Below are positions 3,051-50,494 of a DNA stretch of 64,000 nt, in pieces; positions within the stretch are counted from its first letter, which is position 1, and the number at the start of each line of letters is the position of its first letter. A model generated the notes under the pieces. That model worked only from the letters and a program-made list of their open reading frames with translations. It was not told where the DNA came from and did not search any database. Source of the stretch: Escherichia phage pEC-M2929-1AR.1; the sequence record OP177727.1; one strand, written 5' to 3'. A program made the translations under genes and the position numbers.

Positions 3051-3081
3051 ATATAGGAGATGCATAGCATCTCCTTTTAAA

Positions 3082-7645: not shown

Positions 7646-7881
7646 AAAAAGAAATTTTAACTGATGTAACATATTCTTGTATTAGCAAAGGCGGTTTATA
7701 TCGTGTAGTTGGCTTTCCTAAACCAGCGGGTGTATCTAAAGTATTTGATCCTGTTGTGATCTACGAAGATGTAAGGACTGGTCAACAGTATTGGCGATTC
7801 CAGCAAGATTTCTTACACCGCATGGAGGTTGTTGATGGCGAAAACACCGAAGAAGCGATCCGTAACAAAGCGCGCATCTAA
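7642..7881 (+). CDS. hypothetical protein (79 aa)
   Basis: ORF track; ATGA start/stop overlap with upstream gene. Confidence 0.5.
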   Translation: MKKEILTDVTYSCISKGGLYRVVGFPKPAGVSKVFDPVVIYEDVRTGQQYWRFQQDFLHRMEVVDGENTEEAIRNKARI

Positions 7882-8170
7882 AGATGGGGCGGCAAAAGCC
7901 GCTCCTAAGAAACAAAAATTTGACACAGAGGCTTTTGTCTTTGATACTCCAATAGAAAAGATAGAAGAAGCTCTTGCTAAATTTGAAGCACGTGATGCAG
8001 ATCCTATGGCAGATCCTTTCACAGAAGATGAATTGTACTGGTTTGGCTGGTGGGTTTTGAATCTACCAGAAGCTAAAAAACGAGGAATGAAGTCAGTTCC
8101 TATTTGCGCAAAAGAGTCGGCTGTGTTAGGTTTATACGAGAAGCCTAAAAGAAGGAGCAAAAAGAAATGA
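7835..8170 (+). CDS. hypothetical basic protein (Lys/Arg-rich termini)
   Basis: Track ORF trimmed to ATG at 7835 with GGAGG 6 nt upstream; overlaps previous gene in another frame. Confidence 0.45.
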   Translation: MAKTPKKRSVTKRASKDGAAKAAPKKQKFDTEAFVFDTPIEKIEEALAKFEARDADPMADPFTEDELYWFGWWVLNLPEAKKRGMKSVPICAKESAVLGLYEKPKRRSKKK

Positions 8171-8445
8171 GAAAAACTTATCTGAAGTGTTTGTCTGTTG
8201 TGCAAAATGAATGGTATTCAGGTTTGCTGACAGCAGGTAAGAAATATGAAGTGCTCAATAAACCAGGGGCAAGATTTTCATTAATTAAGAACGACAAAGG
8301 CACTGAAATGCTTATTTCAGTTGCAGATTCTATGTATGGTACTTTTGAGTTGGTCTATGAATATGTACCAATTATTCTTGAATACAGCGGTACAAACAAA
8401 CCTTACACAGCTTTAGATGTGATCAACAACAAAAGGAATAAGTAA
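8167..8445 (+). CDS. hypothetical protein (92 aa)
   Basis: ORF track; overlapping start with upstream stop. Confidence 0.5.
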   Translation: MRKTYLKCLSVVQNEWYSGLLTAGKKYEVLNKPGARFSLIKNDKGTEMLISVADSMYGTFELVYEYVPIILEYSGTNKPYTALDVINNKRNK

Positions 8446-8636
8446 TGTTCCTTATTTATTCAGGTAAAGCCAAATACATGCAAGGTGTGAAGCGTGTAGA
8501 AGTAGTAGATACTGTAACTATAGGAAAATCCTTTATTCTTTATTTGTTTTATATCAATGGAGAAAGATTTGCTGTTTCTAAGAAGTTGGTAGATAATGGT
8601 AAAACTTGGAAAGAAGAGAAACAGGAAGGGGGTTGA
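8445..8636 (+). CDS. hypothetical protein (63 aa)
   Basis: ORF track; ATG overlaps upstream stop (TAATG). Confidence 0.45.
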   Translation: MFLIYSGKAKYMQGVKRVEVVDTVTIGKSFILYLFYINGERFAVSKKLVDNGKTWKEEKQEGG

Positions 8637-8637
8637 T

Positions 8638-8980
8638 AGTGGCTAAAATTCTTTGGTTAGATGATTTAAGAGATCCTAAAGATTATGGTTATGAGGATGC
8701 TATTTGGTTAAAATCTTTTGAGGATTGGTTATCTTTTGTTTCAGATGAAGATAATTTCAATAATATCTCAGAGATACACTTCGATAATGATCTTGGAGAA
8801 GATCAGGAAGGATATCATGCATTCTTAGACGTAGAATGTATGTTGTATGCGGGTGAATGGGATGCTCTTAAGACTATCTATGTCCATACATCAAACCCTT
8901 CTGCTGCTGGTAAATATATGTTAGCTAAGGAAAATTTTATTTCATCCTATGGTGTTGAAATTAAACGTGTTAACTATTAA
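8638..8980 (+). CDS. hypothetical protein
   Basis: Track ORF 8606-8980; probable GTG start at 8638 after GGAAGGGGG. Confidence 0.45.
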
Positions 8981-8989
8981 GGAGGTGTT

Positions 8990-9136
8990 ATGCTTTATGT
9001 TATTTGGATAGATGAAGGGGATGGGTTTTATATATACAAACACACTAACCATTGGCCCGATGTAGAAAAAGCACTTGCAACTTTTGAAGATTGCTTTTAC
9101 GATATACATACAGACGAAGAGTATGAAGAAAATTGA
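8990..9136 (+). CDS. small hypothetical protein (48 aa)
   Basis: Hand-translated MLYVIWIDEGDGFYIYKHTNHWPDVEKALATFEDCFYDIHTDEEYEEN; AAGGAGGTG RBS; below ORF-track cutoff. Confidence 0.45.
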   Translation: MLYVIWIDEGDGFYIYKHTNHWPDVEKALATFEDCFYDIHTDEEYEEN

Positions 9137-9495
9137 TGTGCGCTACTAATCAACATGATATTTGTTACCAACCTCTTACTTGGATTGGTGAGGATCACTA
9201 TGCTCAACGTGTTATAGTATGCGCTGCGAATAAGTATATTCTCAACAATGGCGAAGAGTTAATTATTCCTTGTGTTAGGCATGCAAATCCTGTACTATCT
9301 GCACAACTTAATGTTTTAAAAGATGCAGGATTGATTGATAAACTGTTTTGCTTACCTGATAATCAAGGGTTTATTGATCAGTATTATAACTGGTGGAGTC
9401 GCAAAGATGCTTATATCATTGCAGATAATGCCAAACAAATTAATTATGAAAGAAATGGTCACGACAGTGAACTATTCAGCGAGGGATTATACTAA
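9133..9495 (+). CDS. hypothetical protein (120 aa)
   Basis: ORF track; overlapping stop/start with neighbours. Confidence 0.5.
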   Translation: MMCATNQHDICYQPLTWIGEDHYAQRVIVCAANKYILNNGEELIIPCVRHANPVLSAQLNVLKDAGLIDKLFCLPDNQGFIDQYYNWWSRKDAYIIADNAKQINYERNGHDSELFSEGLY

Positions 9496-10046
9496 TGTTT
9501 ATTACAAGTGATTTGCATTTTATGCACAAACGTATCCGAGAGTTTGCTCCTGAATATCGCCCGTGGGAAGATATGGAGCATATGACAGAAGCACTGATCG
9601 AAGCATGGAATAAATGTGCCACAACACCAGGAGTAAAGATGTACCATCTTGGGGACTTCTGTTTCGGGACTGAAGAAGATACCCGTAAAATTGCTTCACG
9701 TCTTCAAGGTGATATTACTTACTGTGTTGGGAACCATGATTACAGCAAACACCGAGAAGTGCTTGCAGAATATGGTGAGGTTGTGTATTATGACGAAGTG
9801 AAATATCAGAAACTGTTCTTCGTCTTAAGTCATTATCCTATGGCTTCCTGGAATAAACAAGGACATGGATCAATCATGCTACACGGGCACTCTCACGGAT
9901 CATTCCCTGATCATTTGTATGGGAAAATGTTGGATGTTGGTTGGGACGCACACGGAAAAATCTTGCATTTTGACGAAATCATCTCTATTATGGATAAACG
10001 TGATATTGTTGTTGTAGACCATCATAAGATAATCAAAGGAGATTAA
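9495..10046 (+). CDS. calcineurin-like metallophosphoesterase (candidate RNA/DNA 3'-phosphatase)
   Basis: Motifs DLHF, GDFCFG, GNHD, HGHSHG typical of the metallophosphoesterase superfamily. Confidence 0.7.
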   Translation: MFITSDLHFMHKRIREFAPEYRPWEDMEHMTEALIEAWNKCATTPGVKMYHLGDFCFGTEEDTRKIASRLQGDITYCVGNHDYSKHREVLAEYGEVVYYDEVKYQKLFFVLSHYPMASWNKQGHGSIMLHGHSHGSFPDHLYGKMLDVGWDAHGKILHFDEIISIMDKRDIVVVDHHKIIKGD

Positions 10047-10047
10047 G

Positions 10048-10980
10048 GTGGCTAAGTTCAATTGTGATGACCTGATTGCAAAAGGTTTAGTGCATAAAAA
10101 AGAAGTTAAATCTGGAGAGTATGCTGGTCTTGCTGTACTTAAATACAAAAACAATGTATTCTGGGATAACTTGTGGAACGTTGACAAACGACTTCTAGAT
10201 TGTCGTGGGTTGGTTGTTGACTCAGAAGATAATGTTGTTATTTGGCCTTTTACTAAAATCTTTAATCGTTTTGAGAATGGTACAGATCTTCCAGCAGACC
10301 AGCTTGTAGATGCTGTCCGTAAAGTAAACGGTTTTATGGCATCTGTAGGTGTGTACAAAGGGCAACTTATTGTATCAACAACAGGGAGCCTAGAGTCAGA
10401 TTTTGCAACTCTTGCCAAGAACCATATTGTTTCCGAGTGTGATGACATAGAATATTTCATTAAGTGGACAGAAAGTGCAAAAGCAACTTTCCTTTTTGAA
10501 ATCTGTGATCCTTCTGATCCACATATTGTTGAAGAAGAACCAGGTGCATACTTAATTGGAGCAAGAATTCAAAATGATGATGGGACAAGTTTCATGCTAC
10601 CTGAAGGTGTGCTCGATGGGATTGCATCTATTACAAAATTTAAACGTCCTGAAGTTTATCCGATGATTAAATTTTCAGATGTTGTTGAAATGTCTAAACA
10701 TTGTAAGCACGAAGGGTTTGTTGTTCGTGAAACAAACTATCCGTTTAACTTGCTGTTAAAGATTAAGTCACCATACTATCTTGCTAAGAAATTCCTTATG
10801 CGTGGTGGCAATAAGAAGTGGGATATGATTTGGGACAACCCAAAAAATGCTAAACAAATTGTTGACGAAGAATATTATACTTTGCTAGAATGGCTTCGAA
10901 ACAACTTTACTAAGACTCAATGGGCTGCTTTAGATCCACAAGAGCGACGTAAAGAAATAGAAAACTTCTTTGGAGGCTAA
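10048..10980 (+). CDS. ATP-dependent RNA ligase-like nucleotidyltransferase
   Basis: Covalent nucleotidyltransferase motifs: KVNG (motif I), FLFEICDP (III), EGFVVRE (IV), LLLKIKSP (V). Confidence 0.6.
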   Translation: MAKFNCDDLIAKGLVHKKEVKSGEYAGLAVLKYKNNVFWDNLWNVDKRLLDCRGLVVDSEDNVVIWPFTKIFNRFENGTDLPADQLVDAVRKVNGFMASVGVYKGQLIVSTTGSLESDFATLAKNHIVSECDDIEYFIKWTESAKATFLFEICDPSDPHIVEEEPGAYLIGARIQNDDGTSFMLPEGVLDGIASITKFKRPEVYPMIKFSDVVEMSKHCKHEGFVVRETNYPFNLLLKIKSPYYLAKKFLMRGGNKKWDMIWDNPKNAKQIVDEEYYTLLEWLRNNFTKTQWAALDPQERRKEIENFFGG

Positions 10981-13440: not shown

Positions 13441-14163
13441 ATGATCGAGAATTTTTTCAAACAAGTAAAAGTGGACAATAGCTTCTTTATCAAGGCTGCC
13501 GATCAAATTGTTGCTTGGAATGCTAAGGCACGTGGTGGCGTAACCCCAGAATTTACTCAAGAGATGTTTGAAGCTCAACTTTCTTTTGTACGAGAAGAAC
13601 TAAAAGAGTTCCAAGCAGCAGCACAGGAAAATGATCACGTTGAATTACTTGATGCAGCAGCAGATATTTTTGTGGTAGCATCCTACCTGGCATTTATGTT
13701 CTTTGGTAAAGAAGGTGTTGATAAAGCTCTGGAAATGCCGACAGGAGATGTTCTGGCAGAAAACATTTACGACGTTATCATTGAATTTGATAAAATGATA
13801 GAAAATGACTTGCAATTTGCCCTAATGTCTCTTACACTTACACGTATGGCACGAGATACTTTGGTACGTTCTGTTTATAACGAGAAGAAGGTTATGCGTG
13901 AAGTGTTGAATAGCAATGAGTCCAAGTATCCTACCAAAAAGCAACTCCTGGCTATTTGGGAAACTAAGGATATTGTTGAAGCTCTTGAAAAAGAGTGTGA
14001 TGCTATCGAGATGCGAAGCAAAGATCGTGCAGAAGGTTCTTATACTGGAGTACATGCTGTATATAACGAAGTTCAAAAGGTATACGTATTCTTTGATGAC
14101 AAAGGTAAAATTATGAAGCCATCTACCTTTGTTAAACCTAATATCGCAGCAATCATTGCTTAA
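13441..14163 (+). CDS. MazG-like all-alpha NTP pyrophosphohydrolase (tentative)
   Basis: EExxE...E..D pattern (REELKEFQAAAQENDHVELLDAAADIF) resembling MazG/dCTPase family; GGAGAAACA RBS. Confidence 0.35.
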   Translation: MIENFFKQVKVDNSFFIKAADQIVAWNAKARGGVTPEFTQEMFEAQLSFVREELKEFQAAAQENDHVELLDAAADIFVVASYLAFMFFGKEGVDKALEMPTGDVLAENIYDVIIEFDKMIENDLQFALMSLTLTRMARDTLVRSVYNEKKVMREVLNSNESKYPTKKQLLAIWETKDIVEALEKECDAIEMRSKDRAEGSYTGVHAVYNEVQKVYVFFDDKGKIMKPSTFVKPNIAAIIA

Positions 14164-20121: not shown

Positions 20122-21093
20122 ATGACAAATTCTATTTCAGCAAAAATTATTGCACACTCTCAAACATCCGAAGGTAAGGATATTGTTACCTTTGAACTTG
20201 AATATCCTCGAATCATTCACTCTGAATTGATGACGCATCGTTTGTTTTCTCGTAATGCCGCATCAAGTCGAGCTATCCCTGTTAAAACCCTGATTGAAAT
20301 GGTACGGCAATCTCCAGCACGTCCTTATCGTTTTGGTGCTAACCAACCAGGTATGCAAGATAAAGGCACAGATCACGATGCCCTGATTGATGCAGGTTAC
20401 ACTGCAAAAGAATGGTGGGACTTGGCTGCGCTAAGTGCTGCACGTTTTGCAGAAGAGTTTGCCCTTGCTGGTTATCATAAACAGGTTGCAAACCGCCTAC
20501 TAGAACCATTTCAGCGTATGAAGACTGTAGTAACCACTACAGAGCTAGAAAACTTCTTGTGGTTGCGCGTAGATGCTGATGCAGATCCTACTATTGAGGC
20601 TCTTGCTAAAGAAATTAAAAAACTGTATGAATCTTCTGAACCATATCTTCTTTTCCCAGGAGAATGGCATACACCTTACGTTAATCGTGATCGAGATCCA
20701 GAAACTGGTATGATCCGTTATTTCTTGGGTGAAACCTTCTCCAACGAGAAAATGTTGACAGAAGATGAAGCAAAAGCTATTTCAGCTTCTTGTTGCGCTC
20801 AGGTAAGTTATCGTAAGTTGAATGATACTAAAGATAAAGCATTGGATATCTATTCTCGTTTGCTGTCTGGACAAAAGGTACATGCATCTCCGTTTGAACA
20901 CCAGGCAACGCCAATGAAAGAAATGGATTTGTCAGGATTAAAACAACAGAAAGGTGGTATTAATATTCCTCCGTTCCCTTCCTCTTGGGAAGAAGGTATT
21001 ACACATATGGATCGTAAACATCGTTTGTGGAGTGGAAACTTCTGTGGTTGGATTCAACATCGTCAACTTTTGACGAACCATACAAAATGGTGA
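20122..21093 (+). CDS. thyX: flavin-dependent thymidylate synthase (ThyX-like)
   Basis: THRLFSRNAASSRA resembles the ThyX RHR-x7-S signature (first Arg replaced); located between tdk and nrdAB. Confidence 0.6.
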   Translation: MTNSISAKIIAHSQTSEGKDIVTFELEYPRIIHSELMTHRLFSRNAASSRAIPVKTLIEMVRQSPARPYRFGANQPGMQDKGTDHDALIDAGYTAKEWWDLAALSAARFAEEFALAGYHKQVANRLLEPFQRMKTVVTTTELENFLWLRVDADADPTIEALAKEIKKLYESSEPYLLFPGEWHTPYVNRDRDPETGMIRYFLGETFSNEKMLTEDEAKAISASCCAQVSYRKLNDTKDKALDIYSRLLSGQKVHASPFEHQATPMKEMDLSGLKQQKGGINIPPFPSSWEEGITHMDRKHRLWSGNFCGWIQHRQLLTNHTKW

Positions 21094-24141: not shown

Positions 24142-24165
24142 TAGGGGGCTTTGTCCCCCTTTCTT
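24142..24165 (+). terminator. terminator-like hairpin (AGGGGGCTTTGTCCCCCT)
   Basis: GC-rich stem-loop followed by TTTCTT directly after nrdA stop. Confidence 0.4.
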
Positions 24166-26454: not shown

Positions 26455-26652
26455 ATGATGCTAGATCGACTGATCAATGCTCCTCGCGTAACAGTAAGTC
26501 CAAAAACATTTGCATCACTTTTAGAAGATGCTAGAGAGGTTTATAACTTTACTGAAGAAGAGATTCCTGTTCCTGTTGAAAAAGGTTCCAGATGGTTGTT
26601 TTATGAAGGTATTATTTTTACTGAAGGAAATAATTGGAAGGAGACTAAATGA
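26455..26652 (+). CDS. hypothetical protein
   Basis: Track ORF 26362-26652 trimmed to ATG at 26455 after AAGGAGGATAG. Confidence 0.45.
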   Translation: MMLDRLINAPRVTVSPKTFASLLEDAREVYNFTEEEIPVPVEKGSRWLFYEGIIFTEGNNWKETK

Positions 26653-27638
26653 AATACTTAGTAACAGGTGGTTTAGGCTTTATTGGAAGTGCAGTAGTTC
26701 GTTTCCTGGCTAAAAATACTAAGAATGATATTTACGTTATAGATAAATGGGGTTACGCTTCAGACCCTAGAAATTTATCAGAAACACCTAATGTAAAGTT
26801 TTGTCGTGTTGACTTGACAAATGCTCAGTTAACTGCTAAGATTGTGGCAGATGTTAATCCAGATTATATAATGCATCTTGCAGCAGAAAGTCACGTAGAT
26901 AATTCAATAGCATCACCGAGTGTTTTTATAAATTCAAATATTGTTGGAACATTTAATCTTCTAGAAGCTGTTCGTTTAATGGGAGATAAATCAAATCTTA
27001 AAATGTTTCATCATATTTCAACAGATGAAGTGTATGGTGATATGGAAGAAGGGGATTATCCGTTTACAGAACAGAATCCTTATAAACCAAGTAGTCCATA
27101 TGCTGCATCTAAAGCTGCAAGCGATCATTTGGTAAGAGCGTGGCATCGTACTTATGGTATTCCGACAGTTATAACAAATTGTTCAAATAATTTTGGAGCA
27201 TATCATCATCCAGAAAAACTAATACCTAAAACGATAACAAATATCTTGATGCATAAACCAATCCCTGTTTATGGTAATGGTCTTCAAGTAAGAGACTGGT
27301 TATACGTTGACGATCACGCAGAAGCATTACACCTAGTAGTAACTAAAGGCAAATCTGGAGAAACATATAATATTGGGAGCAGAAACCCTAGAACTAATAT
27401 TGATGTAATCTATATGATTTGTGATTATATGGATGCGGTGTATCCATCTGAAACAGATGCTTGTAGCCTCATTGAGATGGTTACAGATAGACCTGGGCAT
27501 GATTTAAGATACGAAGTGAATCCTTATAAGATTGAAAAGGAATTAGGGTGGAAAGCTAAAGGCACATTTGAAGAAAAACTTTATTCAACCATTGATTGGT
27601 ATGTAGATAACAAAGAGTGGTGGGAAAATAAAGTTTAA
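26649..27638 (+). CDS. rmlB: dTDP-glucose 4,6-dehydratase
   Basis: N-terminal [14 protein letters not shown]-binding motif, catalytic YAASKAASD (YxxxK), about 329 aa. Confidence 0.85.
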
Positions 27639-27646
27639 GGAGGAGT

Positions 27647-28516
27647 ATGAAAGGTATTATCTTAGCAGGTGGTAGTGGAACAAGACTTTACCCAGTTACT
27701 AAAGGGGTTAGTAAACAACTATTACCAATTTACGATAAGCCTATGATTTATTATCCACTCTCTGTCCTAATGCTTTCTGGAATTAGGGAAATACTAATAA
27801 TTACAACACCAGAAGATCAAATTAATTTTGTAAATCTTCTAGGTGATGGTTCTTCTTTTGGTATTTCCCTACAGTATGCAATACAAGAAAGCCCGAAAGG
27901 TTTAGCAGAAGCGTTTATTATTGGTGAGAGCTTTATTGGCGAAGATTCTGTAGCACTTGTGCTAGGTGATAATTTATTCTTTGGTCAGAGTTTTGGTAGC
28001 ATTTTAGATTCTGCTAAAGAATATATTGAAAAGAATGGTGGAGCTAATATTTTTGGGTATCACGTAAATGATCCTGAAAGATTTGGTGTTGTTGAGTTTG
28101 ATTCTGAAGGTACAGTGGTGAGTATTGAAGAAAAACCAAAAGCACCAAAAAGCAACTACGCAATCACAGGCTTGTACTTTTACGATAATTCTGTTATACA
28201 GAAAGCTAAGAGCGTTAAACCTTCTGCTAGAGGGGAGTTAGAGATTACAGATATAAATGAGATGTACTGGAAAGAAAAGACTTTACGTGTCTGTAAACTA
28301 GGAAGAGGTTTCACTTGGCTGGATACAGGAACACATGAAAGTCTTATGGAAGCATCTCAATTTGTTCATGCAATAGAAAAGCAACAAGGTATGAAGGTTG
28401 CATGCCTAGAAGAGATTGCTTTTAAAAATGAATGGATTACTTTAGACTCTGTAAAAAGTTCTGGAGAGGTTTTAAGTAAAACAGACTACGGTAAGTATTT
28501 ACTTAAATTAAAATAA
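27647..28516 (+). CDS. rmlA: glucose-1-phosphate thymidylyltransferase
   Basis: [18 protein letters not shown] nucleotidyltransferase signature, 289 aa. Confidence 0.9.
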
Positions 28517-28528
28517 AGGGGGAATTAA

Positions 28529-29083
28529 ATGATTCAAGCAACAAAAATCGAAGATTTGTTGATCATTCAACCTGACGTTTACGGAGATGAACGTGGCTTT
28601 TTCTTAGAAAGTTTTAATCAGGCTTTATATGATCAATACATAGGTAAACAAAACTTTGTCCAGGATAACCACTCACGTTCTATTCGAGGAGTTCTACGTG
28701 GGCTTCATTTTCAAAAGAAAAACCCACAAGGGAAGTTAGTACGTTGTGTTCGTGGTGAAGTTTATGATGTTGCTGTAGATATTAGGGTTGGTAGTCCGAC
28801 ATTTGGAGAATGGGTAGGTGTTCTTTTATCTGAAAAGAATAAAACACAATTTTGGATTCCTCCTGGTTTCGCTCATGGCTTTGTTGTGATTAGCGACATT
28901 GCTGATTTTGAATATAAATGTACAGAATATTACGATCCGACTTCAGAGTGTAGTCTTGCGTGGAATGATCCAGATATCAATATAGATTGGGGTTTTGATT
29001 TAATCTTTAATGATATTAATTTTAAACCTATCTTGTCACAAAAAGATCAGCAAGCCAAAACACTAAAGGAGATCATATTTTGA
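28529..29083 (+). CDS. rmlC: dTDP-4-dehydrorhamnose 3,5-epimerase
   Basis: Cupin-fold epimerase with RGLHFQ signature, 184 aa. Confidence 0.85.
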   Translation: MIQATKIEDLLIIQPDVYGDERGFFLESFNQALYDQYIGKQNFVQDNHSRSIRGVLRGLHFQKKNPQGKLVRCVRGEVYDVAVDIRVGSPTFGEWVGVLLSEKNKTQFWIPPGFAHGFVVISDIADFEYKCTEYYDPTSECSLAWNDPDINIDWGFDLIFNDINFKPILSQKDQQAKTLKEIIF

Positions 29084-29910
29084 CAAAATTTTTAATCTTT
29101 GGTTCAAAAGGTCAATTAGGACAGTCTTTGGCAAAAGTTGCGCCCGAAGATGTTATTTTGATTGAAGCAAGTGATATAGACATTACCAACTTTAAAGATG
29201 TTATGAATAGTCTTGTACAGCACGTGCCTGATGTTGTTGTGAATTGTGCAGCTTACACGGCAGTAGATAAAGCTGAAGAAGATGTTAACACTTGTATAAA
29301 TGTTAATGCATACGGCGCAACAAACATTGCCAAAGCATGTAATGATTTACTGATACAGTTTGTACATATTTCAACAGACTATGTTTTTGATGGGCATGTT
29401 GCTGGCACAGAAGAGAGTAAAACAAACCCCTTGAACACCTACGGTTACAGTAAACAATTAGGTGAAACTTTAGTACAAGCAGTTTGTCCTACAGCACTTA
29501 TTATCAGAACAGCTTCTGTTTATAGTGAATTTGGACATAACTTTTTGAAAACTATGTTGGAACGCTACAACGGTGGTCAAAAAGAATTTAATGTAGTATG
29601 TGATCATTTGTCATGTCCTACTTATGCACCTGATCTTGCAGAAACAATTTTTAAACTTGTAAAAGATGGTGTAAATAGTAAAATTGTACACTATGCAGGT
29701 GCAGATTATATTTCTTGGTATGATTTTGCACGTAAGATATTTCTTGTTATAGATTTATCTGTTACAGTTAATCCTGTATCTGCTTCAACCTATAATTCTA
29801 AAGCAGTCAGACCAGCAACATCTTATTTAAAAACAGATCCTACTTTAAATCCGCGAAGTGTTGATAGCGGTATTGTAAGAACTTTAACTATACTTTTAAA
29901 CAAGGAGTGA
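29080..29910 (+). CDS. rmlD: dTDP-4-dehydrorhamnose reductase
   Basis: Short-chain reductase fold, FGSKGQLG N-terminus and YGYSK (YxxxK) catalytic motif; completes rmlBACD. Confidence 0.75.
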   Translation: MTKFLIFGSKGQLGQSLAKVAPEDVILIEASDIDITNFKDVMNSLVQHVPDVVVNCAAYTAVDKAEEDVNTCINVNAYGATNIAKACNDLLIQFVHISTDYVFDGHVAGTEESKTNPLNTYGYSKQLGETLVQAVCPTALIIRTASVYSEFGHNFLKTMLERYNGGQKEFNVVCDHLSCPTYAPDLAETIFKLVKDGVNSKIVHYAGADYISWYDFARKIFLVIDLSVTVNPVSASTYNSKAVRPATSYLKTDPTLNPRSVDSGIVRTLTILLNKE

Positions 29911-30173
29911 AAATGAATTTTATTATCTACGGTAAACCAAATTGTCCTTTCTGCACTAACGCTAAGATTCTACTAGAACAGCGTGAACAGGATTTTAAAT
30001 ATCTTACCTTAGATGAAGACTATTCTTTAGATCAGATTCAGAATCTGGTTTTAGAGAAAACAGGTGTTCTACCACGCACATTCCCTCAGATTTTTGTGGA
30101 AGATGGTGAACAGCTAACCCACGTAGGAGGTTTTTCTGAACTACGTGAATTCATGGCTCAGATTGCGGAGTAA
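29907..30173 (+). CDS. glutaredoxin (NrdH-like redoxin)
   Basis: 88 aa with CPFC active site near N-terminus. Confidence 0.75.
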   Translation: MKMNFIIYGKPNCPFCTNAKILLEQREQDFKYLTLDEDYSLDQIQNLVLEKTGVLPRTFPQIFVEDGEQLTHVGGFSELREFMAQIAE

Positions 30174-30333: not shown

Positions 30334-30834
30334 ATGGCTAAAGTAGTTGATGTGTTTGATATGTTACGTTTTGATGAAGGACTAAAGCTAACTGTATATC
30401 CTGATACCGAAGGATATTGGACAGTTGGTATTGGACACCTTCTGACAAAACTCAAAGATAAAGCAGAAGCTATACGCATTCTTGATAACTTAGTAGGTAG
30501 AAAAACCAATGGAGTTATTACCGAAGCGGAAGCTAGAAGAATCTTTGAGAGTGACGTAAAGAAAGCGATACAACAAATCCATTCAAGTACCATACTATCT
30601 CCTATTTACGATAAAGTAAGTCCTAATCGTAAAATGGCTATTATTAATATGGTATTTCAAATGGGCTTGAAAGGTGCAGAATCTTTCAAAAATAGCTTGA
30701 CTTTAGTGAGTAATTCATATTATACTCAAGCCTCTATAAATTTACGTAAAAGTAAATGGTATCGCCAAACGCCTAATCGCGCAGAGCGTGTAATTCAGGT
30801 GCTTAAAACTGGAACATTAGACGCTTATAACTAA
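30334..30834 (+). CDS. e: T4-type lysozyme (endolysin, glycoside hydrolase family 24)
   Basis: N-terminus FDMLRFDEGLKLTVYPDTEGYWTVGIGH closely parallels T4 lysozyme ([28 protein letters not shown]). Confidence 0.9.
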   Translation: MAKVVDVFDMLRFDEGLKLTVYPDTEGYWTVGIGHLLTKLKDKAEAIRILDNLVGRKTNGVITEAEARRIFESDVKKAIQQIHSSTILSPIYDKVSPNRKMAIINMVFQMGLKGAESFKNSLTLVSNSYYTQASINLRKSKWYRQTPNRAERVIQVLKTGTLDAYN

Positions 30835-30835
30835 A

Positions 30836-30860
30836 CAAAGGGGCGAAAGCCCCTTTTATA
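30836..30860 (+). terminator. intrinsic terminator (AAAGGGGCGAAAGCCCCTTTT)
   Basis: GC stem, GAAA loop, T-run directly after lysozyme stop. Confidence 0.65.
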
Positions 30861-31661: not shown

Positions 31662-32156
31662 ATGACGCTAATTGAGATTGATCGCAATGGTATTGATGAA
31701 TGCTATCAAGCTGGCTTAGTTAAGCCGAATGAGTTTAGACAGATTTATATTGACAAGATTGAAAAAGAAATATCTCTTCGTTTAGAGAACATGACAACTT
31801 TGCAAAAAGTTCAGATGTTTTTTAGTTGGTTAAAAGGAGAGGATTGGCTAACTAAATATTACCAGGAATTATCTGATAGTCAAGAAGGCTTGTTTGAGTG
31901 TATAATAAATGTAGCTGGGTCTAATTCAGAATTACTCCTGATTGATGAAGAAGATTCTAAACTTCTTTTTCTTAGCAGTATCTTTCACAAGAAATCTATG
32001 TTAGTAAGAAATTGCAGTGATTTACTAAATCATCCACTAACAAGAACCAATAAAATTCTTGTGGATAAAGAAACACTAAGAGCTATTGATTACCTACGTA
32101 AGTATGTAAGCGGTGGTAAAGCAGTCCTTAAAACACTACAGGAGGAAGTACAATGA
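31662..32156 (+). CDS. hypothetical protein (164 aa)
   Basis: ORF track; GGAGG RBS. Confidence 0.5.
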   Translation: MTLIEIDRNGIDECYQAGLVKPNEFRQIYIDKIEKEISLRLENMTTLQKVQMFFSWLKGEDWLTKYYQELSDSQEGLFECIINVAGSNSELLLIDEEDSKLLFLSSIFHKKSMLVRNCSDLLNHPLTRTNKILVDKETLRAIDYLRKYVSGGKAVLKTLQEEVQ

Positions 32157-32806
32157 CAACAATTATTGCAACACATAACAAAATTCTATCTGACGGTAAA
32201 GTAACAGTAGGTAATCGAGTAGACACTTTAAATTTCAAGAAAGTGCGTAAAATTGGGGATTACCTTGTTGGTGGTGCAGGACGTCTGTCTTCTATCCTGA
32301 CTTTCTTTTCTTGGTTCGAACAAAACTTACAGTGCCAGGCAGCACAAGAGACAATCCCAGGTTTGGTGATCCAGTCAGATCCTGATAAAGAAGATGAAGA
32401 GTTTGTGGCATTGGTTGTTCACCCAGACGGTAAAATTTATATGCACGAGGGTAATAATCCAACGCGAGCATATCCTTTAACTGAAGATTACTATGCTGTT
32501 GGTAGTGGGGCAGATTTTGCTTTAGCAGCTTTAGACGCTGGGGCAACCCCAGAAGAAGCGATGGAAGTTGCAAAACTACGAGATGCTTTTTCAGGCGGTG
32601 AAACTTTTGTCGAAGAGATCGAAGAACAACTGGAGCTAACAGCGGAAGATATTCTGAACTTCAGCAAGGAGCAACTAATTAGTATGCTGTTGACTGGTGA
32701 TCCTGATAGTGATGAAGCTGAAAGTATTTTAGCAGAGATGAAAGAATCACAAGAAAAAGTATTGACAGTCTCTGAAAAACTTGATAAAGTATCCTCTGAT
32801 AATTAA
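32153..32806 (+). CDS. HslV-like Ntn-hydrolase peptidase with acidic C-terminal extension
   Basis: MTTIIA (Thr right after Met), GGAGRLSSILTFFSWFE and AVGSGADFALAAL blocks parallel E. coli HslV (TTIVSV..., AGFAGGTADAFTLFELFE, AIGSGGPYAQAAA). Confidence 0.55.
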   Translation: MTTIIATHNKILSDGKVTVGNRVDTLNFKKVRKIGDYLVGGAGRLSSILTFFSWFEQNLQCQAAQETIPGLVIQSDPDKEDEEFVALVVHPDGKIYMHEGNNPTRAYPLTEDYYAVGSGADFALAALDAGATPEEAMEVAKLRDAFSGGETFVEEIEEQLELTAEDILNFSKEQLISMLLTGDPDSDEAESILAEMKESQEKVLTVSEKLDKVSSDN

Positions 32807-38570: not shown

Positions 38571-38984
38571 ATGTATTATAGTGACTATTTTGTAAACCCA
38601 ACAAAAGAACAACTTCAATCAGCAGTGGATAAGATGCAGATTGTAGTTAAAGAATGTGAGAAAATAAGAAAACAACTACAAGAAGAGACTGTTGTTGTTA
38701 GTAAATGGTTTGGTCTTAGAAAGAAGGTTGTTAGTAAACACAATATCATCCTTGAAAAAGCAAAAACGACAGGAACTAGTTACGCCTTACAAGGCTTGTT
38801 GCTAAATTACATTGATATAGAACAACATTCTCTTCTGCACTGTTGGCTCCACAGTCCTAGTATTGAGGATCTCTTGTTCTGGTTATCGTGTGAATCTGTA
38901 CTTTTAAATGAAAATGAGGCTTACCGTTTAAACTTCTGCTTGAAGGCAGAATTACCAGCTAGTGTTAAGGAGAAGAAGCAATAA
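38571..38984 (+). CDS. hypothetical protein (137 aa)
   Basis: ORF track; AAAGGAG RBS. Confidence 0.55.
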   Translation: MYYSDYFVNPTKEQLQSAVDKMQIVVKECEKIRKQLQEETVVVSKWFGLRKKVVSKHNIILEKAKTTGTSYALQGLLLNYIDIEQHSLLHCWLHSPSIEDLLFWLSCESVLLNENEAYRLNFCLKAELPASVKEKKQ

Positions 38985-39973
38985 TGAAAGTTTTAAGTCT
39001 TTTTGATGGTATGTCAGGAGGAATGCTTGCACTAAAAAGTGCAGGTATTGAAGTAGATAAGTATTATGCCTCAGAATTGGACAAATTTGCCATAGCTGAA
39101 AGCCAAGCCAATTTTCCAGATATTATTCAATTAGGTGATGTTACAAAATGGAGAGAATGGGATATCCCGTGGGGAGAAATTGACCTTTTGTTAGGTGGTA
39201 GCCCGTGCCAAGGCTTCTCTTCTTCTGGTAAGGGTTTGAACTTTCAAGATCCGCGATCTAAACTGTTCTTTGAATATGTTGAAATTCTTGAACATATTAA
39301 AAAGTTTAACCCTAATGTTAAGTTCATGCTTGAAAACGTTAAGATGAAGGTGGAGTGGGAAAACGTGATCACAAGTTACTTAGGTGTTGATCCCGTATTC
39401 ATTAACTCCGCAGATTTCACTGCACAGAATAGACAACGTTTATACTGGTGCAATTGGGAAATAAAACCTTGGGATATTACCAATGAAGTGTTGCAAGATA
39501 TCATTGAAGATGATAGTATCGTAGACAGAGATAAGGCTTATTGCATAGATGCAAATTATGCCAAAGGTGGTAATATAGAACAGTATTTTGAAAAGAGTCG
39601 CAGACAACTGGTTTTTTATCCAGCAGCAATATATGGGCGTAGAATTAATGAAAATGGCAAACGTAGTACATCTAAAACTGATCGTTTGGTACATTGCTTG
39701 GAAGTTCAGGACAGTGAAAAAACTCGTTGCCTCACGACTGTGCCGAAAGACGTACTATTAGCCTACATTCCACCTGGAAGATATCTGGATGCCTTTGAAA
39801 AATTGAGTGAAGGTGTGCATTATAGAAAGTTAACGGTTAAAGAGTGTTGCCGCTTACAAGGTGTTCCAGATGATTACTTTAAAGTGAGTAGTAACACACA
39901 AGCATATAAGATGTTAGGTAATGGTTGGACTATACCTGTCATTGCACATATTCTTAAGTGTATGGAGGAATGA
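38984..39973 (+). CDS. DNA (cytosine-5)-methyltransferase
   Basis: FDGMSGG (motif I), GGSPCQGFS (motif IV with catalytic Cys), ENV (motif VI). Confidence 0.85.
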   Translation: MKVLSLFDGMSGGMLALKSAGIEVDKYYASELDKFAIAESQANFPDIIQLGDVTKWREWDIPWGEIDLLLGGSPCQGFSSSGKGLNFQDPRSKLFFEYVEILEHIKKFNPNVKFMLENVKMKVEWENVITSYLGVDPVFINSADFTAQNRQRLYWCNWEIKPWDITNEVLQDIIEDDSIVDRDKAYCIDANYAKGGNIEQYFEKSRRQLVFYPAAIYGRRINENGKRSTSKTDRLVHCLEVQDSEKTRCLTTVPKDVLLAYIPPGRYLDAFEKLSEGVHYRKLTVKECCRLQGVPDDYFKVSSNTQAYKMLGNGWTIPVIAHILKCMEE

Positions 39974-40762: not shown

Positions 40763-41317
40763 ATGGGTTTTGATGATATGTTATTATATGAGGAGGCTTG
40801 TGTGAAAGAAGCTATGGCTTTACCAGTTTTATCTATTGATATTACAACAGTAGACACTTTTTCAGATTGTGAAACGTGTGGATCGTATTCATCTATTGTA
40901 CATGAAGTCAGTGGGGATTTAGGCACTTACGAAGATGGAGATTATGCAAGTTGTTTAGGTGATAATCGAGATGGTGAAGTGGCGAATGTTGCAAACTGGA
41001 TTGCTTCTAAGTTAAAAGAAAGAAATCGTCCGTTCCCTAATCTTCTTACACCAGAAGCTATGCTTAAAGCTGAAGAAGAGATGTATGATTATGGTGATAA
41101 AGTAGCTCATGATTACAATGATCCTAATTATAAAAAATTGAGTGATAAGTATTGGGAACTAGCTAATGCTTATGATAAATACTACTCTACAGAAAACATT
41201 GTTAAATTGTTTTTAGATTTTGGAGTAGAAATTAATTGGGATTTCGAAGAGGAAGAGCGTTACGACGCATCTTCTTGGGATGATGATTACGAAGAGGATA
41301 TTGAATGCGAAGAGTAA
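40763..41317 (+). CDS. hypothetical acidic protein (Asp/Glu-rich C-terminus)
   Basis: Track ORF 40748-41317 trimmed to ATG at 40763 after GGAGGATAT; C-terminus EEEERYDASSWDDDYEEDIECEE. Confidence 0.5.
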   Translation: MGFDDMLLYEEACVKEAMALPVLSIDITTVDTFSDCETCGSYSSIVHEVSGDLGTYEDGDYASCLGDNRDGEVANVANWIASKLKERNRPFPNLLTPEAMLKAEEEMYDYGDKVAHDYNDPNYKKLSDKYWELANAYDKYYSTENIVKLFLDFGVEINWDFEEEERYDASSWDDDYEEDIECEE

Positions 41318-42117
41318 TTTTTGTCAGTGGTGCAGGTTTAAGTGCAGACAGTGGGATTCGAACATTCCGAACAGACACAGACAGTGGTCGTGCTTTATGG
41401 GAAGAATATGATTTAGAAGAGGTCTGCGATATTGGAGCTTTCCAAGCAGGTTATCGTGTGAGAACATCTCCAGATCTTCCAGTGGTTGGTGGTGTAGACG
41501 AAAATGGTATGGATTTGTATGCCAAAACACACGAATTTTATAACAAAAGACGTGTTGAGCTTAAAGATGTACAACCTAATGCTGCACATATTCAAATAGC
41601 AAAGTGGTTTAAGGAATATCCTAACCAAGTAATAAACTTGACAACAAACGTTGATGATCTACTAGAGCGAGCAGGTGTAGACAGAGATTCGGTTATTCAC
41701 GTGCACGGATATCTTCCTGAAGTAGTTTACCGTATGCATCCTGGAGATTACAAAACACTGGTAGATATTGGTTACAACAGCATAAACATAGATGATTATA
41801 ACTGGGTGAAGCCTAATGTTGTATTTTTTGGTGAGGCTGCACCTTTGTATGCAGATATGGCTCACTTGTTCGATACTTTGACCATGCAAGATTTGGTTGT
41901 TGTAGTAGGATGTTCAAACCAAGTTATCAATTTTAATTGGGAATTATTCCCTGCACTTAATATGGGTACAAAAATGATTGTTGTTAACCCAGGAATTAAT
42001 TACGAAGAAACTCTTCTTTACGAAGATAGAGGAGTCTTTGTTTATCGAGAAAAAGCCGCAGATGCTTTTAGCAATCCTGCTTTCATAAAAATGATAGAAG
42101 ATCATTTGACTAAATAA
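41305..42117 (+). CDS. Sir2-family (sirtuin-like) NAD-binding protein lacking zinc-ribbon cysteines
   Basis: GAGLSADSGIRTFR, TTNVDDLLERAG, HVHG, VVFFGE and VVVVGCSNQV blocks in sirtuin order; no CxxC pairs between the His and FGE blocks. Confidence 0.7.
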   Translation: MRRVIFVSGAGLSADSGIRTFRTDTDSGRALWEEYDLEEVCDIGAFQAGYRVRTSPDLPVVGGVDENGMDLYAKTHEFYNKRRVELKDVQPNAAHIQIAKWFKEYPNQVINLTTNVDDLLERAGVDRDSVIHVHGYLPEVVYRMHPGDYKTLVDIGYNSINIDDYNWVKPNVVFFGEAAPLYADMAHLFDTLTMQDLVVVVGCSNQVINFNWELFPALNMGTKMIVVNPGINYEETLLYEDRGVFVYREKAADAFSNPAFIKMIEDHLTK

Positions 42118-47522: not shown

Positions 47523-47818
47523 CGTTCCCCCTGTTTAAGTACGATATAGGATTGACGAGATTTCCATCGCCCTATCTTAACAAGGCAAATAATGCCTCTC
47601 TTTAACAAATATTTCATATCTTCGTCATAAGCTGTTTGCAATTGCCACTTACTGTTAACAGGAAGCGAACCATGTACCCTCAAATGAGCTAACAAATACT
47701 TTCTTCGCTCCTTCCCATAAGGCAGATATTGCCATTCTTTCTTTGATACAGGTTCATGTACTTTACGATGCCAGTAAGTAAGGTGTCTTCTTTTATGTAA
47801 ACCCCTGTTCCTTACCAT
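47519..47818 (-). CDS. hypothetical basic protein (99 aa)
   Basis: ORF track; Arg/Lys/His-rich. Confidence 0.45.
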   Translation of the reverse strand: MVRNRGLHKRRHLTYWHRKVHEPVSKKEWQYLPYGKERRKYLLAHLRVHGSLPVNSKWQLQTAYDEDMKYLLKRGIICLVKIGRWKSRQSYIVLKQGER

Positions 47819-48057
47819 TATACCTCTACCTCCGTTACCCCAGGATCTCTAGTCCAGGTGTAGTAGAGCATACCATCTTCTTTCAGTGCAATGCGATCAC
47901 TTTCGTCTCGAAGATATAGGTCACAAACTACGCGCAGTTGCGGATCTGATCCGAGTAGTTCTGAAACAATAAGGTCATCACCGCTCATACGAGCAACAAT
48001 CACTGCATATTGACCAGTATCTGCATCAAAAATTGGTTGTCCGATGTTTAATTGCAT
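47818..48057 (-). CDS. hypothetical protein (79 aa)
   Basis: ORF track. Confidence 0.45.
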   Translation of the reverse strand: MQLNIGQPIFDADTGQYAVIVARMSGDDLIVSELLGSDPQLRVVCDLYLRDESDRIALKEDGMLYYTWTRDPGVTEVEV

Positions 48058-48308
48058 TGTGTTGTCTCCTTATTCAGTACGTTGTTTTGTGCTGCGCACC
48101 AGCACTCATAAAAACCTTGGGTTAATGGCATAGTGTAGTTTCCAGAAGGATCTCTTTCGAGATCCCCATCTGCATAACAACCACTACCTAAGAACCATTT
48201 TTCAAAATCGGATAAATCATCCCAGTCTACGCTATTTTTCATATTATACCGTCTTATACCCGACAATAGCAACCTGATTCGTAGGCTTCCAACGACCAAT
48301 AATCTCAC
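48048..48308 (-). CDS. hypothetical protein (86 aa)
   Basis: ORF track. Confidence 0.4.
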   Translation of the reverse strand: MRLLVVGSLRIRLLLSGIRRYNMKNSVDWDDLSDFEKWFLGSGCYADGDLERDPSGNYTMPLTQGFYECWCAAQNNVLNKETTQCN

Positions 48309-48702
48309 CAGAAATCTCTGTGCTACTGTTTATGTATTGGTAATGGGTATCATCATGATTAACCCACGCCATAACGTCAAGGGTAGGGGTTTTGACGTGT
48401 ACCAGCAGTGTAGCCCATTCTGGGGCTTCTTTAATATCCACAGACTCTTGCCAATCTTCTTCGATGTGCCAAGTAGGTTCACCATCAACATCTGTAACGA
48501 AGAAACGAGCTTTCATACGTTTAAAGAACATTGGTGTATACCCATGATCGCACTCTGGGATAAAATCATCCATCGTTTCGTCATAGGTGAAATATTGTCC
48601 ATCTTTATAATGAAAAGATGCGCAAAACAGTTCATTACGAGCAGGAACATGCCATACAGCTACAAAACTACGACCATGTGGATAATGTTTAACCTCTTGC
48701 AT
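48244..48702 (-). CDS. hypothetical protein
   Basis: Track ORF 48244-48735 trimmed to ATG at 48702 after AAGGAGAAAACT. Confidence 0.5.
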   Translation of the reverse strand: MQEVKHYPHGRSFVAVWHVPARNELFCASFHYKDGQYFTYDETMDDFIPECDHGYTPMFFKRMKARFFVTDVDGEPTWHIEEDWQESVDIKEAPEWATLLVHVKTPTLDVMAWVNHDDTHYQYINSSTEISGEIIGRWKPTNQVAIVGYKTV

Positions 48703-48712
48703 AGTTTTCTCC

Positions 48713-49063
48713 TTATTTTTCTTCAAAAGAATCAATTCGATTTTGTTCTATGTCAATTGCAGCATCTAAGATAAGTTTTAATGCTTCAAATTGCAAGTCT
48801 TCTTCTAAAGAGAAGACATATAAAACAACGGACTCCAAGTAAGACAGCACCCCAAGACTAAGAGTTGCAATCTCTACTCCTGCATCGGAGAAGCCTGTTT
48901 GCAAAACTTCTTTGAAGAAACGTTGTTTATCAACAATAGCAGATAAAATAAGCGTTTTACGCTCCTCTGCTGATCGCACTGTGCAGTATATGTTGCTAAA
49001 AGAATCCAGCCACATTTTGATCATACCTTGTCGGTACATAAGGATTTCAATATCAGCCAACAT
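48713..49063 (-). CDS. hypothetical protein
   Basis: Track ORF 48713-49162 trimmed to internal ATG that abuts the stop of the upstream gene. Confidence 0.4.
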   Translation of the reverse strand: MLADIEILMYRQGMIKMWLDSFSNIYCTVRSAEERKTLILSAIVDKQRFFKEVLQTGFSDAGVEIATLSLGVLSYLESVVLYVFSLEEDLQFEALKLILDAAIDIEQNRIDSFEEK

Positions 49064-49064
49064 A

Positions 49065-49232
49065 TTATTTATCCCCTGGAGAAAGATTTGTATTAATTTG
49101 ATAGTAAAAATCAAAATCCTTGTGTTGATCGCACCATTCTTGAGCCTCTTTAAATGACGCAAATTGCATAGTGAATGTTGCCATCCACGTGTTCATATTT
49201 TTGTTGAACTTGTCGATAAAAAATGTTTGCAT
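49065..49232 (-). CDS. hypothetical protein
   Basis: Track ORF 49065-49253 trimmed to ATG at 49232 (TAATG overlap with upstream stop, GGGAGGAATA RBS). Confidence 0.4.
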   Translation of the reverse strand: MQTFFIDKFNKNMNTWMATFTMQFASFKEAQEWCDQHKDFDFYYQINTNLSPGDK

Positions 49233-49465
49233 TATTCCTCCCATTTTATCCAAAGGCAGTATTCTGGAACATAAACCTCCTTCCCTTTGTTATTCACAAA
49301 GGTGTACTCCACAAATTCTGCTTTATATGTTTTGTTATACTCCTGTGCTGCTGGCACAGGACATTTTGTAATGCGCGTTTCAGTCCAACGGCGGTGTATA
49401 ACCGCCTTGTTCTTTGGATCAAACGGATGTATAAAGTGCGTTTTACTCATGTGCCATTTCCACAA
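49232..49465 (-). CDS. hypothetical protein (77 aa)
   Basis: ORF track. Confidence 0.45.
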   Translation of the reverse strand: MWKWHMSKTHFIHPFDPKNKAVIHRRWTETRITKCPVPAAQEYNKTYKAEFVEYTFVNNKGKEVYVPEYCLWIKWEE

Positions 49466-49847
49466 GATTTTTAATCATAGTTTCTCGACAGAGATTCCAC
49501 ATATCTGAAGCAACCATAGAAGCATATTCATCGGGGTTGGATTCTGGTAAAATCTCTTTAACTGCTTCTGGTGTCGGGTTGCACATAGCAGGTAGTGCTT
49601 TAAGTGCATCTTCAATAGAGAGCTTCTTACCTTCACTGTAAATAACTTCGTAACCATAGTCATTTACATCTTCTGGAATATCCCGATCCAGGAAACGTAC
49701 AGTAGAGTTATGCATTTTGTTCATAGCTTCACTAACACCAGCGCCACAAAGCTGTGCAACTTCTTCAGAGATACAATCACAAATAACAACTTCGTAAGGT
49801 TTTCCACCATAATACTGCGCATTATATTTGATTTTAACAGACCACAT
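49443..49847 (-). CDS. hypothetical protein (134 aa)
   Basis: ORF track; AAGGAGAG RBS. Confidence 0.5.
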   Translation of the reverse strand: MWSVKIKYNAQYYGGKPYEVVICDCISEEVAQLCGAGVSEAMNKMHNSTVRFLDRDIPEDVNDYGYEVIYSEGKKLSIEDALKALPAMCNPTPEAVKEILPESNPDEYASMVASDMWNLCRETMIKNLVEMAHE

Positions 49848-49902
49848 ATCACTCTCCTTATTTAACGTGTTTTAGCAATTCAATAAAACATAATCTCTTT
49901 CA

Positions 49903-50487: not shown

Positions 50488-50494
50488 GACCTCT

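Follow-up and report, generated by a model that had tools for sequence, protein, structure and literature searches.

The 64,000-nucleotide stretch of DNA analysed here (the window) comes from Escherichia phage pEC-M2929-1AR.1 (sequence record OP177727.1), and carries on its plus strand four contiguous genes, rmlB, rmlA, rmlC and rmlD, which evidently encode a complete pathway for the synthesis of dTDP-L-rhamnose. The pathway is predicted to be functional, because the sequences are intact and the genes evolve under purifying selection, with ratios of non-synonymous to synonymous substitution rates (dN/dS) of 0.02-0.14. It probably supplies the donor sugar to glycosyltransferases (GTs) encoded by the phage itself; the acceptor that is tentatively preferred is a protein of the virion. 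The cluster itself is not new: it has been in GenBank since phi92 and was flagged in print, and the speculation on its role made in an earlier reading of the sequence alone (the original prediction) matches the published one. What is added by the present analysis is the location of candidate transferases, the indication that the end product of the pathway is what the phage needs, and a set of observations that make DNA glycosylation unlikely.

Identification of the four rml genes

Family membership was defined as a score above the curated cut-off of an NCBIfam equivalog model, and motifs were read from alignments to solved enzymes. At the level of sequence, all four open reading frames (ORFs) were confirmed as RmlB, RmlA, RmlC and RmlD, with the catalytic residues intact, and the assignments made by Pfam agree with those made by NCBIfam.

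The rmlB gene (26649..27638, plus strand) encodes a dTDP-glucose 4,6-dehydratase of 329 aa, which scores 441.7 bits against TIGR01181 (cut-off 365.1). Its alignment to RmlB of S. enterica (1g1a, E=1e-116) shows the GxxGxxG motif of the SDR family, the TDE motif and the YxxxK motif (YAASK), all intact. The product of rmlA (27647..28516, plus strand), a glucose-1-phosphate thymidylyltransferase of 289 aa, reaches 471.4 bits against TIGR01207 (cut-off 360.65), its residues 2-288 corresponding to positions 1-284 of the 286 of the model. Compared with S. enterica RmlA (1iim, E=6e-125), it keeps the GGSGTRL nucleotide-binding loop, as well as the sugar-phosphate and metal-binding residues in LGDN, EEKP and WLDTGT. 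The exact RmlA protein was found in 76 blocks of the assembly collection, from which 25 contigs were read.

The third gene, rmlC (28529..29083, plus strand), encodes a dTDP-4-dehydrorhamnose 3,5-epimerase of 184 aa, and matches TIGR01221 over its full length with 260.4 bits (cut-off 155.75). In the alignment to S. enterica RmlC (1dzr, E=6e-64) the catalytic His (RGLHFQ), Lys (GKLVRC) and Tyr (EYK) are kept, while the catalytic Asp was placed, by inspection only, in the C-terminal SQKD. The last gene, rmlD (29080..29910, plus strand), starts with TTG and encodes a dTDP-4-dehydrorhamnose reductase of 276 aa, scoring 254.3 bits against TIGR01214 (cut-off 224.05), with a match that ends at position 261 of the 285 of the model. 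Alignment to 1vl0 and 3sc6 identified GSKGQLG (GxxGxxG), STDYVF (STD) and YGYSK (YxxxK), so that the Thr/Tyr/Lys triad is present. The same 276-aa gene model is found in the BASEL phage PaulScherrer and in independent gene calls.

The identity and the order of the four genes, rmlB-A-C-D, are therefore as originally proposed, all four equivalog cut-offs being passed with motifs intact, and the view that such a set is rare in a lytic phage was also judged correct.

Natural loss of rmlB and rmlA

In the predicted pathway, RmlA would form dTDP-glucose from glucose-1-phosphate and dTTP, RmlB would convert it into dTDP-4-keto-6-deoxyglucose, RmlC would turn this into dTDP-4-keto-L-rhamnose, and a NAD(P)H-dependent reduction by RmlD would yield dTDP-L-rhamnose. 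Relatives of the phage indicate which of these steps are needed. Phapecoctavirus anhysbys and Klebsiella phage phi1_175008 carry rmlC and rmlD only, in the exact same syntenic slot (for phi1_175008, region 2785-4531 of contig L005). The junction in anhysbys reads ...TAAGGAGAGAAAATG(rmlC) (contig L004, 3400-3440), and the corresponding one in Phapecoctavirus ESCO5, where all four genes are present, reads ...TAAGGAGAACTGATG(rmlB) (contig L009, 3400-3440; second site 5280-5320). Read side by side, the two sequences indicate that in anhysbys everything from the Shine-Dalgarno sequence of rmlB to that of rmlC was cleanly excised, which would leave rmlC translatable.

The identical excision junction was found in 22 records, corresponding to about 18 distinct phages once the visible GenBank/RefSeq duplicate pairs are subtracted, and the intact Phapecoctavirus junction in 45. 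Purifying selection persists in the deleted lineage, where dN/dS is 0.03 for rmlC and 0.11 for rmlD. Since phi1_175008 is closer to Justusliebigvirus, the genus of the phage described here, than to Phapecoctavirus (88% identity for NrdB, 75% for RmlC), its loss of rmlB and rmlA was probably independent.

The distribution of the pathway among hosts follows the same line. The rffG and rffH genes of the enterobacterial common antigen (ECA) pathway are universal in E. coli. All 5426 complete E. coli genomes proved to have homologues of rmlB and rmlA, but only 2412 of them (44%) to have rfbD, a figure from which very divergent alleles could be missing. Relatives may thus lose rmlBA, and never rmlCD, because all E. 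coli make the product of RmlB for ECA and less than half of them complete the pathway. As hosts always offer the first two steps and often not the last two, these data argue fairly strongly that the end product, dTDP-L-rhamnose, is what the phage needs, and that the genes make it independent of the host serotype.

Candidate glycosyltransferases

No GT was found in the window, by a Pfam survey of the 20 kb around the rml genes and Pfam scans of the other ORFs of at least 150 aa, as had been stated from the sequence alone. The further statement that the transferase could not be named no longer holds, since four candidate GT genes lie about 70 kb away in near-identical genomes. In PaulScherrer they are found together (bas60_0048-0051), beside the genes for primase/helicase and DNA polymerase A, and occupy positions 47580-50756 on the minus strand; the same cluster is seen at 7769-10945 of the Justusliebigvirus contig L006. 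The GT-A gene and the adjoining GT-B gene are annotated in PaulScherrer with an overlap of 53 nt.

Two of the candidates are paralogous GT-B proteins, for which the predicted model (pLDDT 94.6) has a GT4 fold, with BshA, GlgM, MshA, TreT, PglA, GtfC and SdgB as best structural matches; GT1-type proteins of giant viruses are also among its structural neighbours. The third is a GT-A candidate (pLDDT 88.6) with invariant FDDD and YGxED motifs, whose model matches, at low TM-scores, STIV A197, WrtF, chondroitin synthases, Listeria RmlT and TarP. The fourth, a small candidate GT of 187 aa, is of DXD type with an RDID motif, and produced no Pfam match even at E=10. None of the four had a match in a sequence search of solved structures or in NCBIfam. 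Reading the acceptor from the fold searches with the GT-B and GT-A models was tried and given up, as only generic GT4 and GT-A matches were obtained.

The small GT is the best conserved of the candidates, with 74% identity to its counterpart in the Klebsiella relative. It shows the same record counts as RmlC, 54 at 95% identity or more and 77 at 60-80%, and RmlC is present in all of these 54+77 Stephanstirmvirinae-type phage records. Phage phi1_175008, with rmlCD only, keeps the small GT and just one GT-B. As judged from gene content, the conserved core comprises, at minimum, RmlC and RmlD together with the small GT and one enzyme of GT4 type; to the small GT and the GT4-fold enzyme predicted for the subfamily, Justusliebigvirus adds a GT4 paralogue and the putative GT-A enzyme.

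Other genes were observed around the GT cluster. Members of the Ter family (TerC, TelA, a vWA-TerF-like protein and TerD) are encoded within a few kb of it (contig L006, 1-5751). A cell-wall hydrolase of the Hydrolase_2 family is also near the cluster, and a Gad2 (anti-Gabija) family protein is encoded beside the DNA polymerase. Genes for a macrodomain protein, a phosphoribosyltransferase and a HAD protein are found further along the same strand in PaulScherrer. According to its annotation, PaulScherrer has inteins in both its DNA polymerase and its UvrD/Rep helicase (L001 41715-45029; L002 21294-24068); the polymerase of contig L006, of 859 aa, is apparently without an intein.

Relatives, selection and age of the cluster

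The phage was assigned to the genus Justusliebigvirus (phi92-like), subfamily Stephanstirmvirinae. Over the cluster, its identity is 99.9% to Escherichia phage vB_EcoM_AMO3598 and 98-99% to about 54 further records, including phi92, alia, PHB05, ECGD1 and PaulScherrer. The rml genes are annotated under their proper names in phi92 and in more than 100 related phage records in GenBank. Compared with the clusters of phi92, of the BASEL phages Bas60-62 and of Phapecoctavirus, nothing material differs, and the present phage is another Justusliebigvirus isolate. Some records of this group bear the name 'Campylobacter phage' (MG065639, MG065645, MG065650, MG065656 and MG065689; A150, A145, B15, C3 and A110a), and show 98.5% identity to the Justusliebigvirus of E. 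coli or a match to Phapecoctavirus; probably they were assigned to the wrong host, or else arose as contaminants.

Within the genus, dN/dS, calculated against PaulScherrer, is 0.026 for rmlB, 0.144 for rmlA, 0.021 for rmlC and 0.035 for rmlD; for nrdB and the lysozyme gene, the values are 0.024 and 0.054. The rml genes are under strong purifying selection, like nrdB and lysozyme. In ESCO5, where the genes occupy the same syntenic slot, the Rml proteins are 54-72% identical to those of the window, and the flanking NrdB, lysozyme and PhoH 76-84%; the B-A-C-D order in the same slot is also found in the more distant Klebsiella member 05F01.

The rfb operon of E. coli and Salmonella (rfbBDAC) encodes the same four enzyme families, and is likewise contiguous, co-directional and tightly packed. 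The two differ in gene order, B-A-C-D in the phage and rfbB-D-A-C in the host, and in location, as the host genes belong to the O-antigen locus, whereas those of this lytic phage lie between nrdB and grx. A recent capture from the host was considered and ruled out on several grounds: the best E. coli match covers 52% of the cluster, at about 65% nucleotide identity and with its genes in another order; no named cellular protein (Flavobacterium, Bacteroidales, Chitinophagaceae, Porticoccaceae) exceeds 46% identity to RmlD; and base composition is phage-like, the GC content at third codon positions (GC3) of the rml genes, 0.20-0.25, being similar to that of the adjoining phage genes. The homologues of RmlD, encoded on contigs that reach about 150 kb, group in a deep clade of phage proteins only, with identity ranging from 99% down to about 50%. 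On these comparisons, the cluster is an old, vertically inherited part of the subfamily, apparently acquired neither recently nor from E. coli.

The acceptor of the sugar

If the pathway works as predicted, dTDP-L-rhamnose would be donated to the GTs that the phage encodes beside its primase/helicase, a step considered likely. These would in turn act on a phage protein, namely one of the virion, rather than on bulk DNA, as in the virion-glycosylation cassettes of actinophages. Virion protein may be the single most likely acceptor, with host envelope glycans next, but the odds are somewhat against this identification, and the whole chain, from donor supply to the phage GTs to a virion-protein acceptor, is likewise offered with reserve. 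A first rhamnosylated virion of a Gram-negative lytic phage is the preferred, if still tentative, reading.

The evidence comes from the outside homologues of the two conserved GTs. Those of the small GT are found only in Cellulophaga phages, and include the C-terminal domain of phi18:1 gp41 (35% identity, E=6e-22), whose gene is located between that for a head-morphogenesis protein and those for the prohead protease and the major capsid protein, and adjoins that for a Methyltransf_24 enzyme. The GT-B homologue is gp6 of the Streptomyces Zukovirus phage KimJongPhill (27% identity, E=5e-13). This is the last gene of a trio for an RmlB-like dehydratase, a methyltransferase and the GT, in this order, placed directly upstream of the terminase, portal, scaffold and capsid genes; the Zukovirus dehydratase scores 203 bits against TIGR01181, under the equivalog cut-off. 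A role in glycosylation for the Zukovirus and Cellulophaga cassettes was deduced by analogy with cluster O mycobacteriophages (2023 paper).

Multiple tandem GTs are a feature shared with the actinophage virion-glycosylation cassettes (cluster O/F1 mycobacteriophages; Streptomyces Zukovirus genes 4-6), and the Streptomyces cassette, like the present phage, combines a homologous GT4-type enzyme with an enzyme of a 6-deoxyhexose pathway (RmlB-like). Unlike in those cassettes, some 70 kb here separate the sugar genes from the GT genes, neither set belongs to the structural module or was seen to have a methyltransferase partner beside it, and the host is Gram-negative. Virus-encoded sugar machineries are also known from eukaryotic hosts, as in the synthesis of UDP-L-rhamnose by Mimivirus and the glycosylation of the PBCV-1 capsid. 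Giant viruses and chloroviruses similarly combine a rhamnose nucleotide-sugar pathway with GTs of their own, but use UDP- or GDP-linked sugars and different enzymes; we know of no sequence-level relation between these enzymes and the present rml genes.

Several points weigh against a virion acceptor. The GTs are located in the replication module and the rml genes in the nucleotide-metabolism module, not among structural genes, and such a context suits a role on DNA, or in early takeover of the host, as well. Both GT folds find matches among enzymes whose substrates range over small molecules, lipids, polymers and proteins, and phage DNA glycosyltransferases give similar structural matches. The argument from head modules consists of two distant homologues, at 27-35% identity, and the co-occurrence of rmlCD and GTs could reflect only that both are core genes of one subfamily. 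The use of dTDP-rhamnose as donor by the GTs, rather than of a UDP-sugar, and the acceptor itself are predictions; no glycoproteomic data were found.

A possible, though rather unlikely, alternative is a remodelling of the host envelope. The GTs would decorate intermediates of the lipopolysaccharide (LPS) core, of O-antigen or of ECA at the cytoplasmic face of the inner membrane, which would mask the phage's own glycan receptors, resulting in superinfection exclusion or in fewer progeny lost on cell debris. Phages of this type recognise surface glycans, such as the glucose of the LPS core, and relatives target ECA (Maffei 2021, PMC8594841). GT4 and GT-A folds are typical of the assembly of LPS and polysaccharides, and PglA, PimA, TarP, WrtF and RmlT, the last a rhamnosyltransferase of wall teichoic acid in Listeria, are among the structural matches. 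The genes are outside the structural module and, if expressed early, as their position suggests, would have time to alter the envelope. Against this, neither a flippase nor a GtrA/B-type or other membrane component was seen in Pfam surveys of 20 kb around the rml genes and around the GT cluster, and the closest outside homologues of both conserved GTs are in head-gene cassettes and not in envelope loci. Moreover, the known envelope-modifying phages are temperate, and newly made LPS could hardly arrive at the surface within the short span of a lytic cycle. The seroconversion modules of temperate phages, of the Gtr type or otherwise modifying O-antigen, join a membrane flippase and a bactoprenol GT (GtrA/GtrB) to a serotype-specific GT; the present phage is a virulent myovirus, and the two 20-kb surveys showed no such families.

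Rhamnosylation of DNA bases, among the options of the original prediction, had been proposed in print. The presence of rml genes in the DNA metabolism region was called 'peculiar', and rhamnosylation of hydroxymethylated nucleotides was suggested (Olsen 2020, PMC7552041). The phi92-like phages of the BASEL collection were later described as 'exceptionally susceptible' to restriction-modification 'despite ... a putative dTDP glycosylation machinery' (Maffei 2021, PMC8594841), and both points are repeated in a 2024 paper. No paper was found that reports rhamnose on DNA or virions of Stephanstirmvirinae, or that settles the function of the cluster.

According to this proposal, the GTs beside the replisome would act on a modified pyrimidine. 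The rml genes are indeed among those of nucleotide metabolism, and the GTs adjoin the primase/helicase and DNA polymerase genes. The GT-A candidate has sub-threshold matches to TAGT (PF20691, 23.3 bits against 27.5) and to the PHROG of the T-even beta-glucosyl-HMC alpha-glucosyltransferase, and its R...DDD...ED motifs resemble those of phage DNA GT-A enzymes (Pyle et al.). RB69 and DLP3 pair their own NDP-sugar enzymes with GT4-like GTs (PMC13326640), and a C5-cytosine methylase is encoded in the window at 38984-39973 (plus strand). A nucleotide-sugar supply combined with several GT-A or GT4-like GTs is likewise found in the T-even (glucosyl-hmC) and RB69/DLP3 (arabinosyl-5hoC) systems and in clusters of a C5-methyltransferase, 5mYOX and GTs. 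Unlike in these hypermodification systems, the present GTs are not clustered with the C5-methylase, and the donor would be a dTDP-sugar and not a UDP-sugar.

Known DNA sugar systems depend on a ThyA-family enzyme or on 5mYOX/TET for the hydroxyl that accepts the sugar, and confer resistance to restriction (Pyle et al.; PMC13326640). A search of the window, and of the larger unannotated proteins of a genome 98-99% identical to it, detected no ThyA-family hydroxymethylase or hydroxylase and no TET/JBP dioxygenase, but could have missed very remote homologues; nor was a TET/JBP partner seen near the C5-cytosine methylase. The only thymidylate synthase, encoded in the window at 20122-21093 (plus strand; 323 aa), is of ThyX type; it keeps the HR..S..N..S.R signature but differs widely from characterised ThyX enzymes, scoring 35.8 bits against TIGR02170 (cut-off 87.9), without a sequence match in the PDB. 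The idea of a base hydroxylase hidden in this ThyX-like protein was discarded, as the family occurs in more than 1,000 phages without rml or these GTs, including rV5, ICP1, and PAK_P-like and N4-like phages. In addition, phi92-like phages are highly sensitive to restriction systems of types I, II and III (Maffei 2021); the TAGT-like GT-A is missing from the Klebsiella relative that keeps rmlCD, and is thus not conserved across the subfamily; and the first 50 structural matches obtained with the GT-B model, in either PDB or BFVD, do not include the T4 alpha- and beta-glucosyltransferases. For these reasons, rhamnosylation of bulk DNA is disfavoured and given a low probability.

A sparse or context-specific rhamnosylation of DNA, in which the bases would be activated by enzymes of some family other than ThyA or 5mYOX/TET and the donor would be a dTDP-sugar, is decidedly improbable too. 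If true, it would represent a new class of DNA glycosylation that confers no broad resistance to restriction, with a possible role in regulation, in packaging or in the evasion of defences other than restriction.

A small chance is also given to the transfer of rhamnose to a small molecule or to a host protein in the course of host takeover, the metabolite being perhaps linked to the Ter-family, phosphoribosyltransferase and HAD genes. The top structural matches of the GT-B model are small-molecule enzymes (BshA, MshA, TreT, GlgM), and protein O-glycosyltransferases (GtfC, Gtf3, SdgB) also rank high; the closeness of the TerC, TelA, vWA-TerF-like and TerD genes to the GT cluster, and the macrodomain, phosphoribosyltransferase and HAD genes on the same strand, point in the same direction. 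This support is purely contextual, however, with no candidate acceptor, and GTs with different acceptors give the same structural matches.

Finally, a metabolic drain without any transferase, either consuming dTTP, as the original prediction had suggested, or diverting the host dTDP-4-keto-6-deoxyglucose from ECA and O-antigen, is very improbable: the cluster does sit among dNTP-supply genes, and RmlC and RmlD alone would divert an ECA precursor that every host makes, but a dTTP drain needs RmlA, which together with RmlB is precisely what natural variants drop while keeping rmlC and rmlD, precursor diversion conflicts with the presence in most members of rmlBA, which adds precursor, and it is unlikely that dTTP would be wasted by a phage equipped with thymidine kinase, ThyX and two ribonucleotide reductases.

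Gene arrangement and neighbouring features

The rml set is embedded in a long co-directional block of nucleotide-metabolism genes, between nrdB and grx. Upstream of it are genes for thymidine kinase, an NT5C-like protein, the ThyX-type thymidylate synthase, NrdA and NrdB, and downstream are, in this order, a glutaredoxin gene, a 47-aa ORF, the phage lysozyme gene (30334-30834) and PhoH. Both the nucleotide-metabolism setting and the vicinity of a glutaredoxin and an endolysin had been recognised from the sequence alone. The spacing along the series formed by the preceding ORF, rmlB, rmlA, rmlC, rmlD and glutaredoxin is -4, 8, 12, -4 and +2 nt. A Shine-Dalgarno sequence stands in front of each of the four rml genes: the start of rmlB, preceded by GGAAGGAG, shares 4 nt with the end of the ORF before it, and the TTG start of rmlD, which overlaps rmlC by 4 nt, is found 8 nt after AAGGAG.

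The glutaredoxin gene (29913..30173, plus strand; 86 aa) has its best start at ATG 29913, also after AAGGAG. Its product scores 45.4 bits against Pfam Glutaredoxin, and its matches to the GRX models of NCBIfam are under the cut-off. The gene stays directly 3' of rmlD in relatives without rmlBA; the glutaredoxin is not a member of the rhamnose pathway, and probably serves the NrdAB reductase encoded upstream.

Promoter- and terminator-like sites near the cluster are as many as in shuffled sequence, with no internal promoter or terminator above this control, so that operon boundaries or internal transcription signals cannot be called. Two GC-rich hairpins are the only terminator-like structures near the cluster, their count not exceeding that of shuffled sequence: one, callable on both strands, at 24143-24160, just after nrdA, and a second at 30837-30856, just after the lysozyme gene (AAAGGGGC..GCCCCTTT).

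Elsewhere in the window, an array of 16 tRNA genes was identified by ARAGORN at 281-3157 (minus strand), including three tRNA-Met(CAT), two Leu and two Ser. Two ORFs, at 3905-5638 (minus strand, 577 aa) and 5710-6603 (minus strand, 297 aa), correspond in length and position to the genes annotated in PaulScherrer as nicotinamide phosphoribosyltransferase and PRPP synthetase. By these features the pair resembles a putative module for NAD+ salvage or reconstitution, which could be a counter-defence. The same co-directional block as the rml genes contains, on the plus strand, genes for a MazG-like (PRA-PH) protein (13441-14163), an HslV/proteasome-like peptidase (32153-32806) and a SIR2-family protein (41305-42117), in addition to the C5-cytosine methylase mentioned above.

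Implications

Throughout a whole subfamily of broad-host-range coliphages, relevant to therapy, the two final steps of rhamnose activation are retained under strong selection, along with two or more GTs. The existence of rmlBA-deletion variants, together with the distribution of the pathway in hosts (44% against 100%), gives simple genetic predictions. If the acceptor is a virion protein, the glycosylation of phage virions would extend from actinophages to enterobacterial phages, and would matter for recognition by antibodies in therapy.

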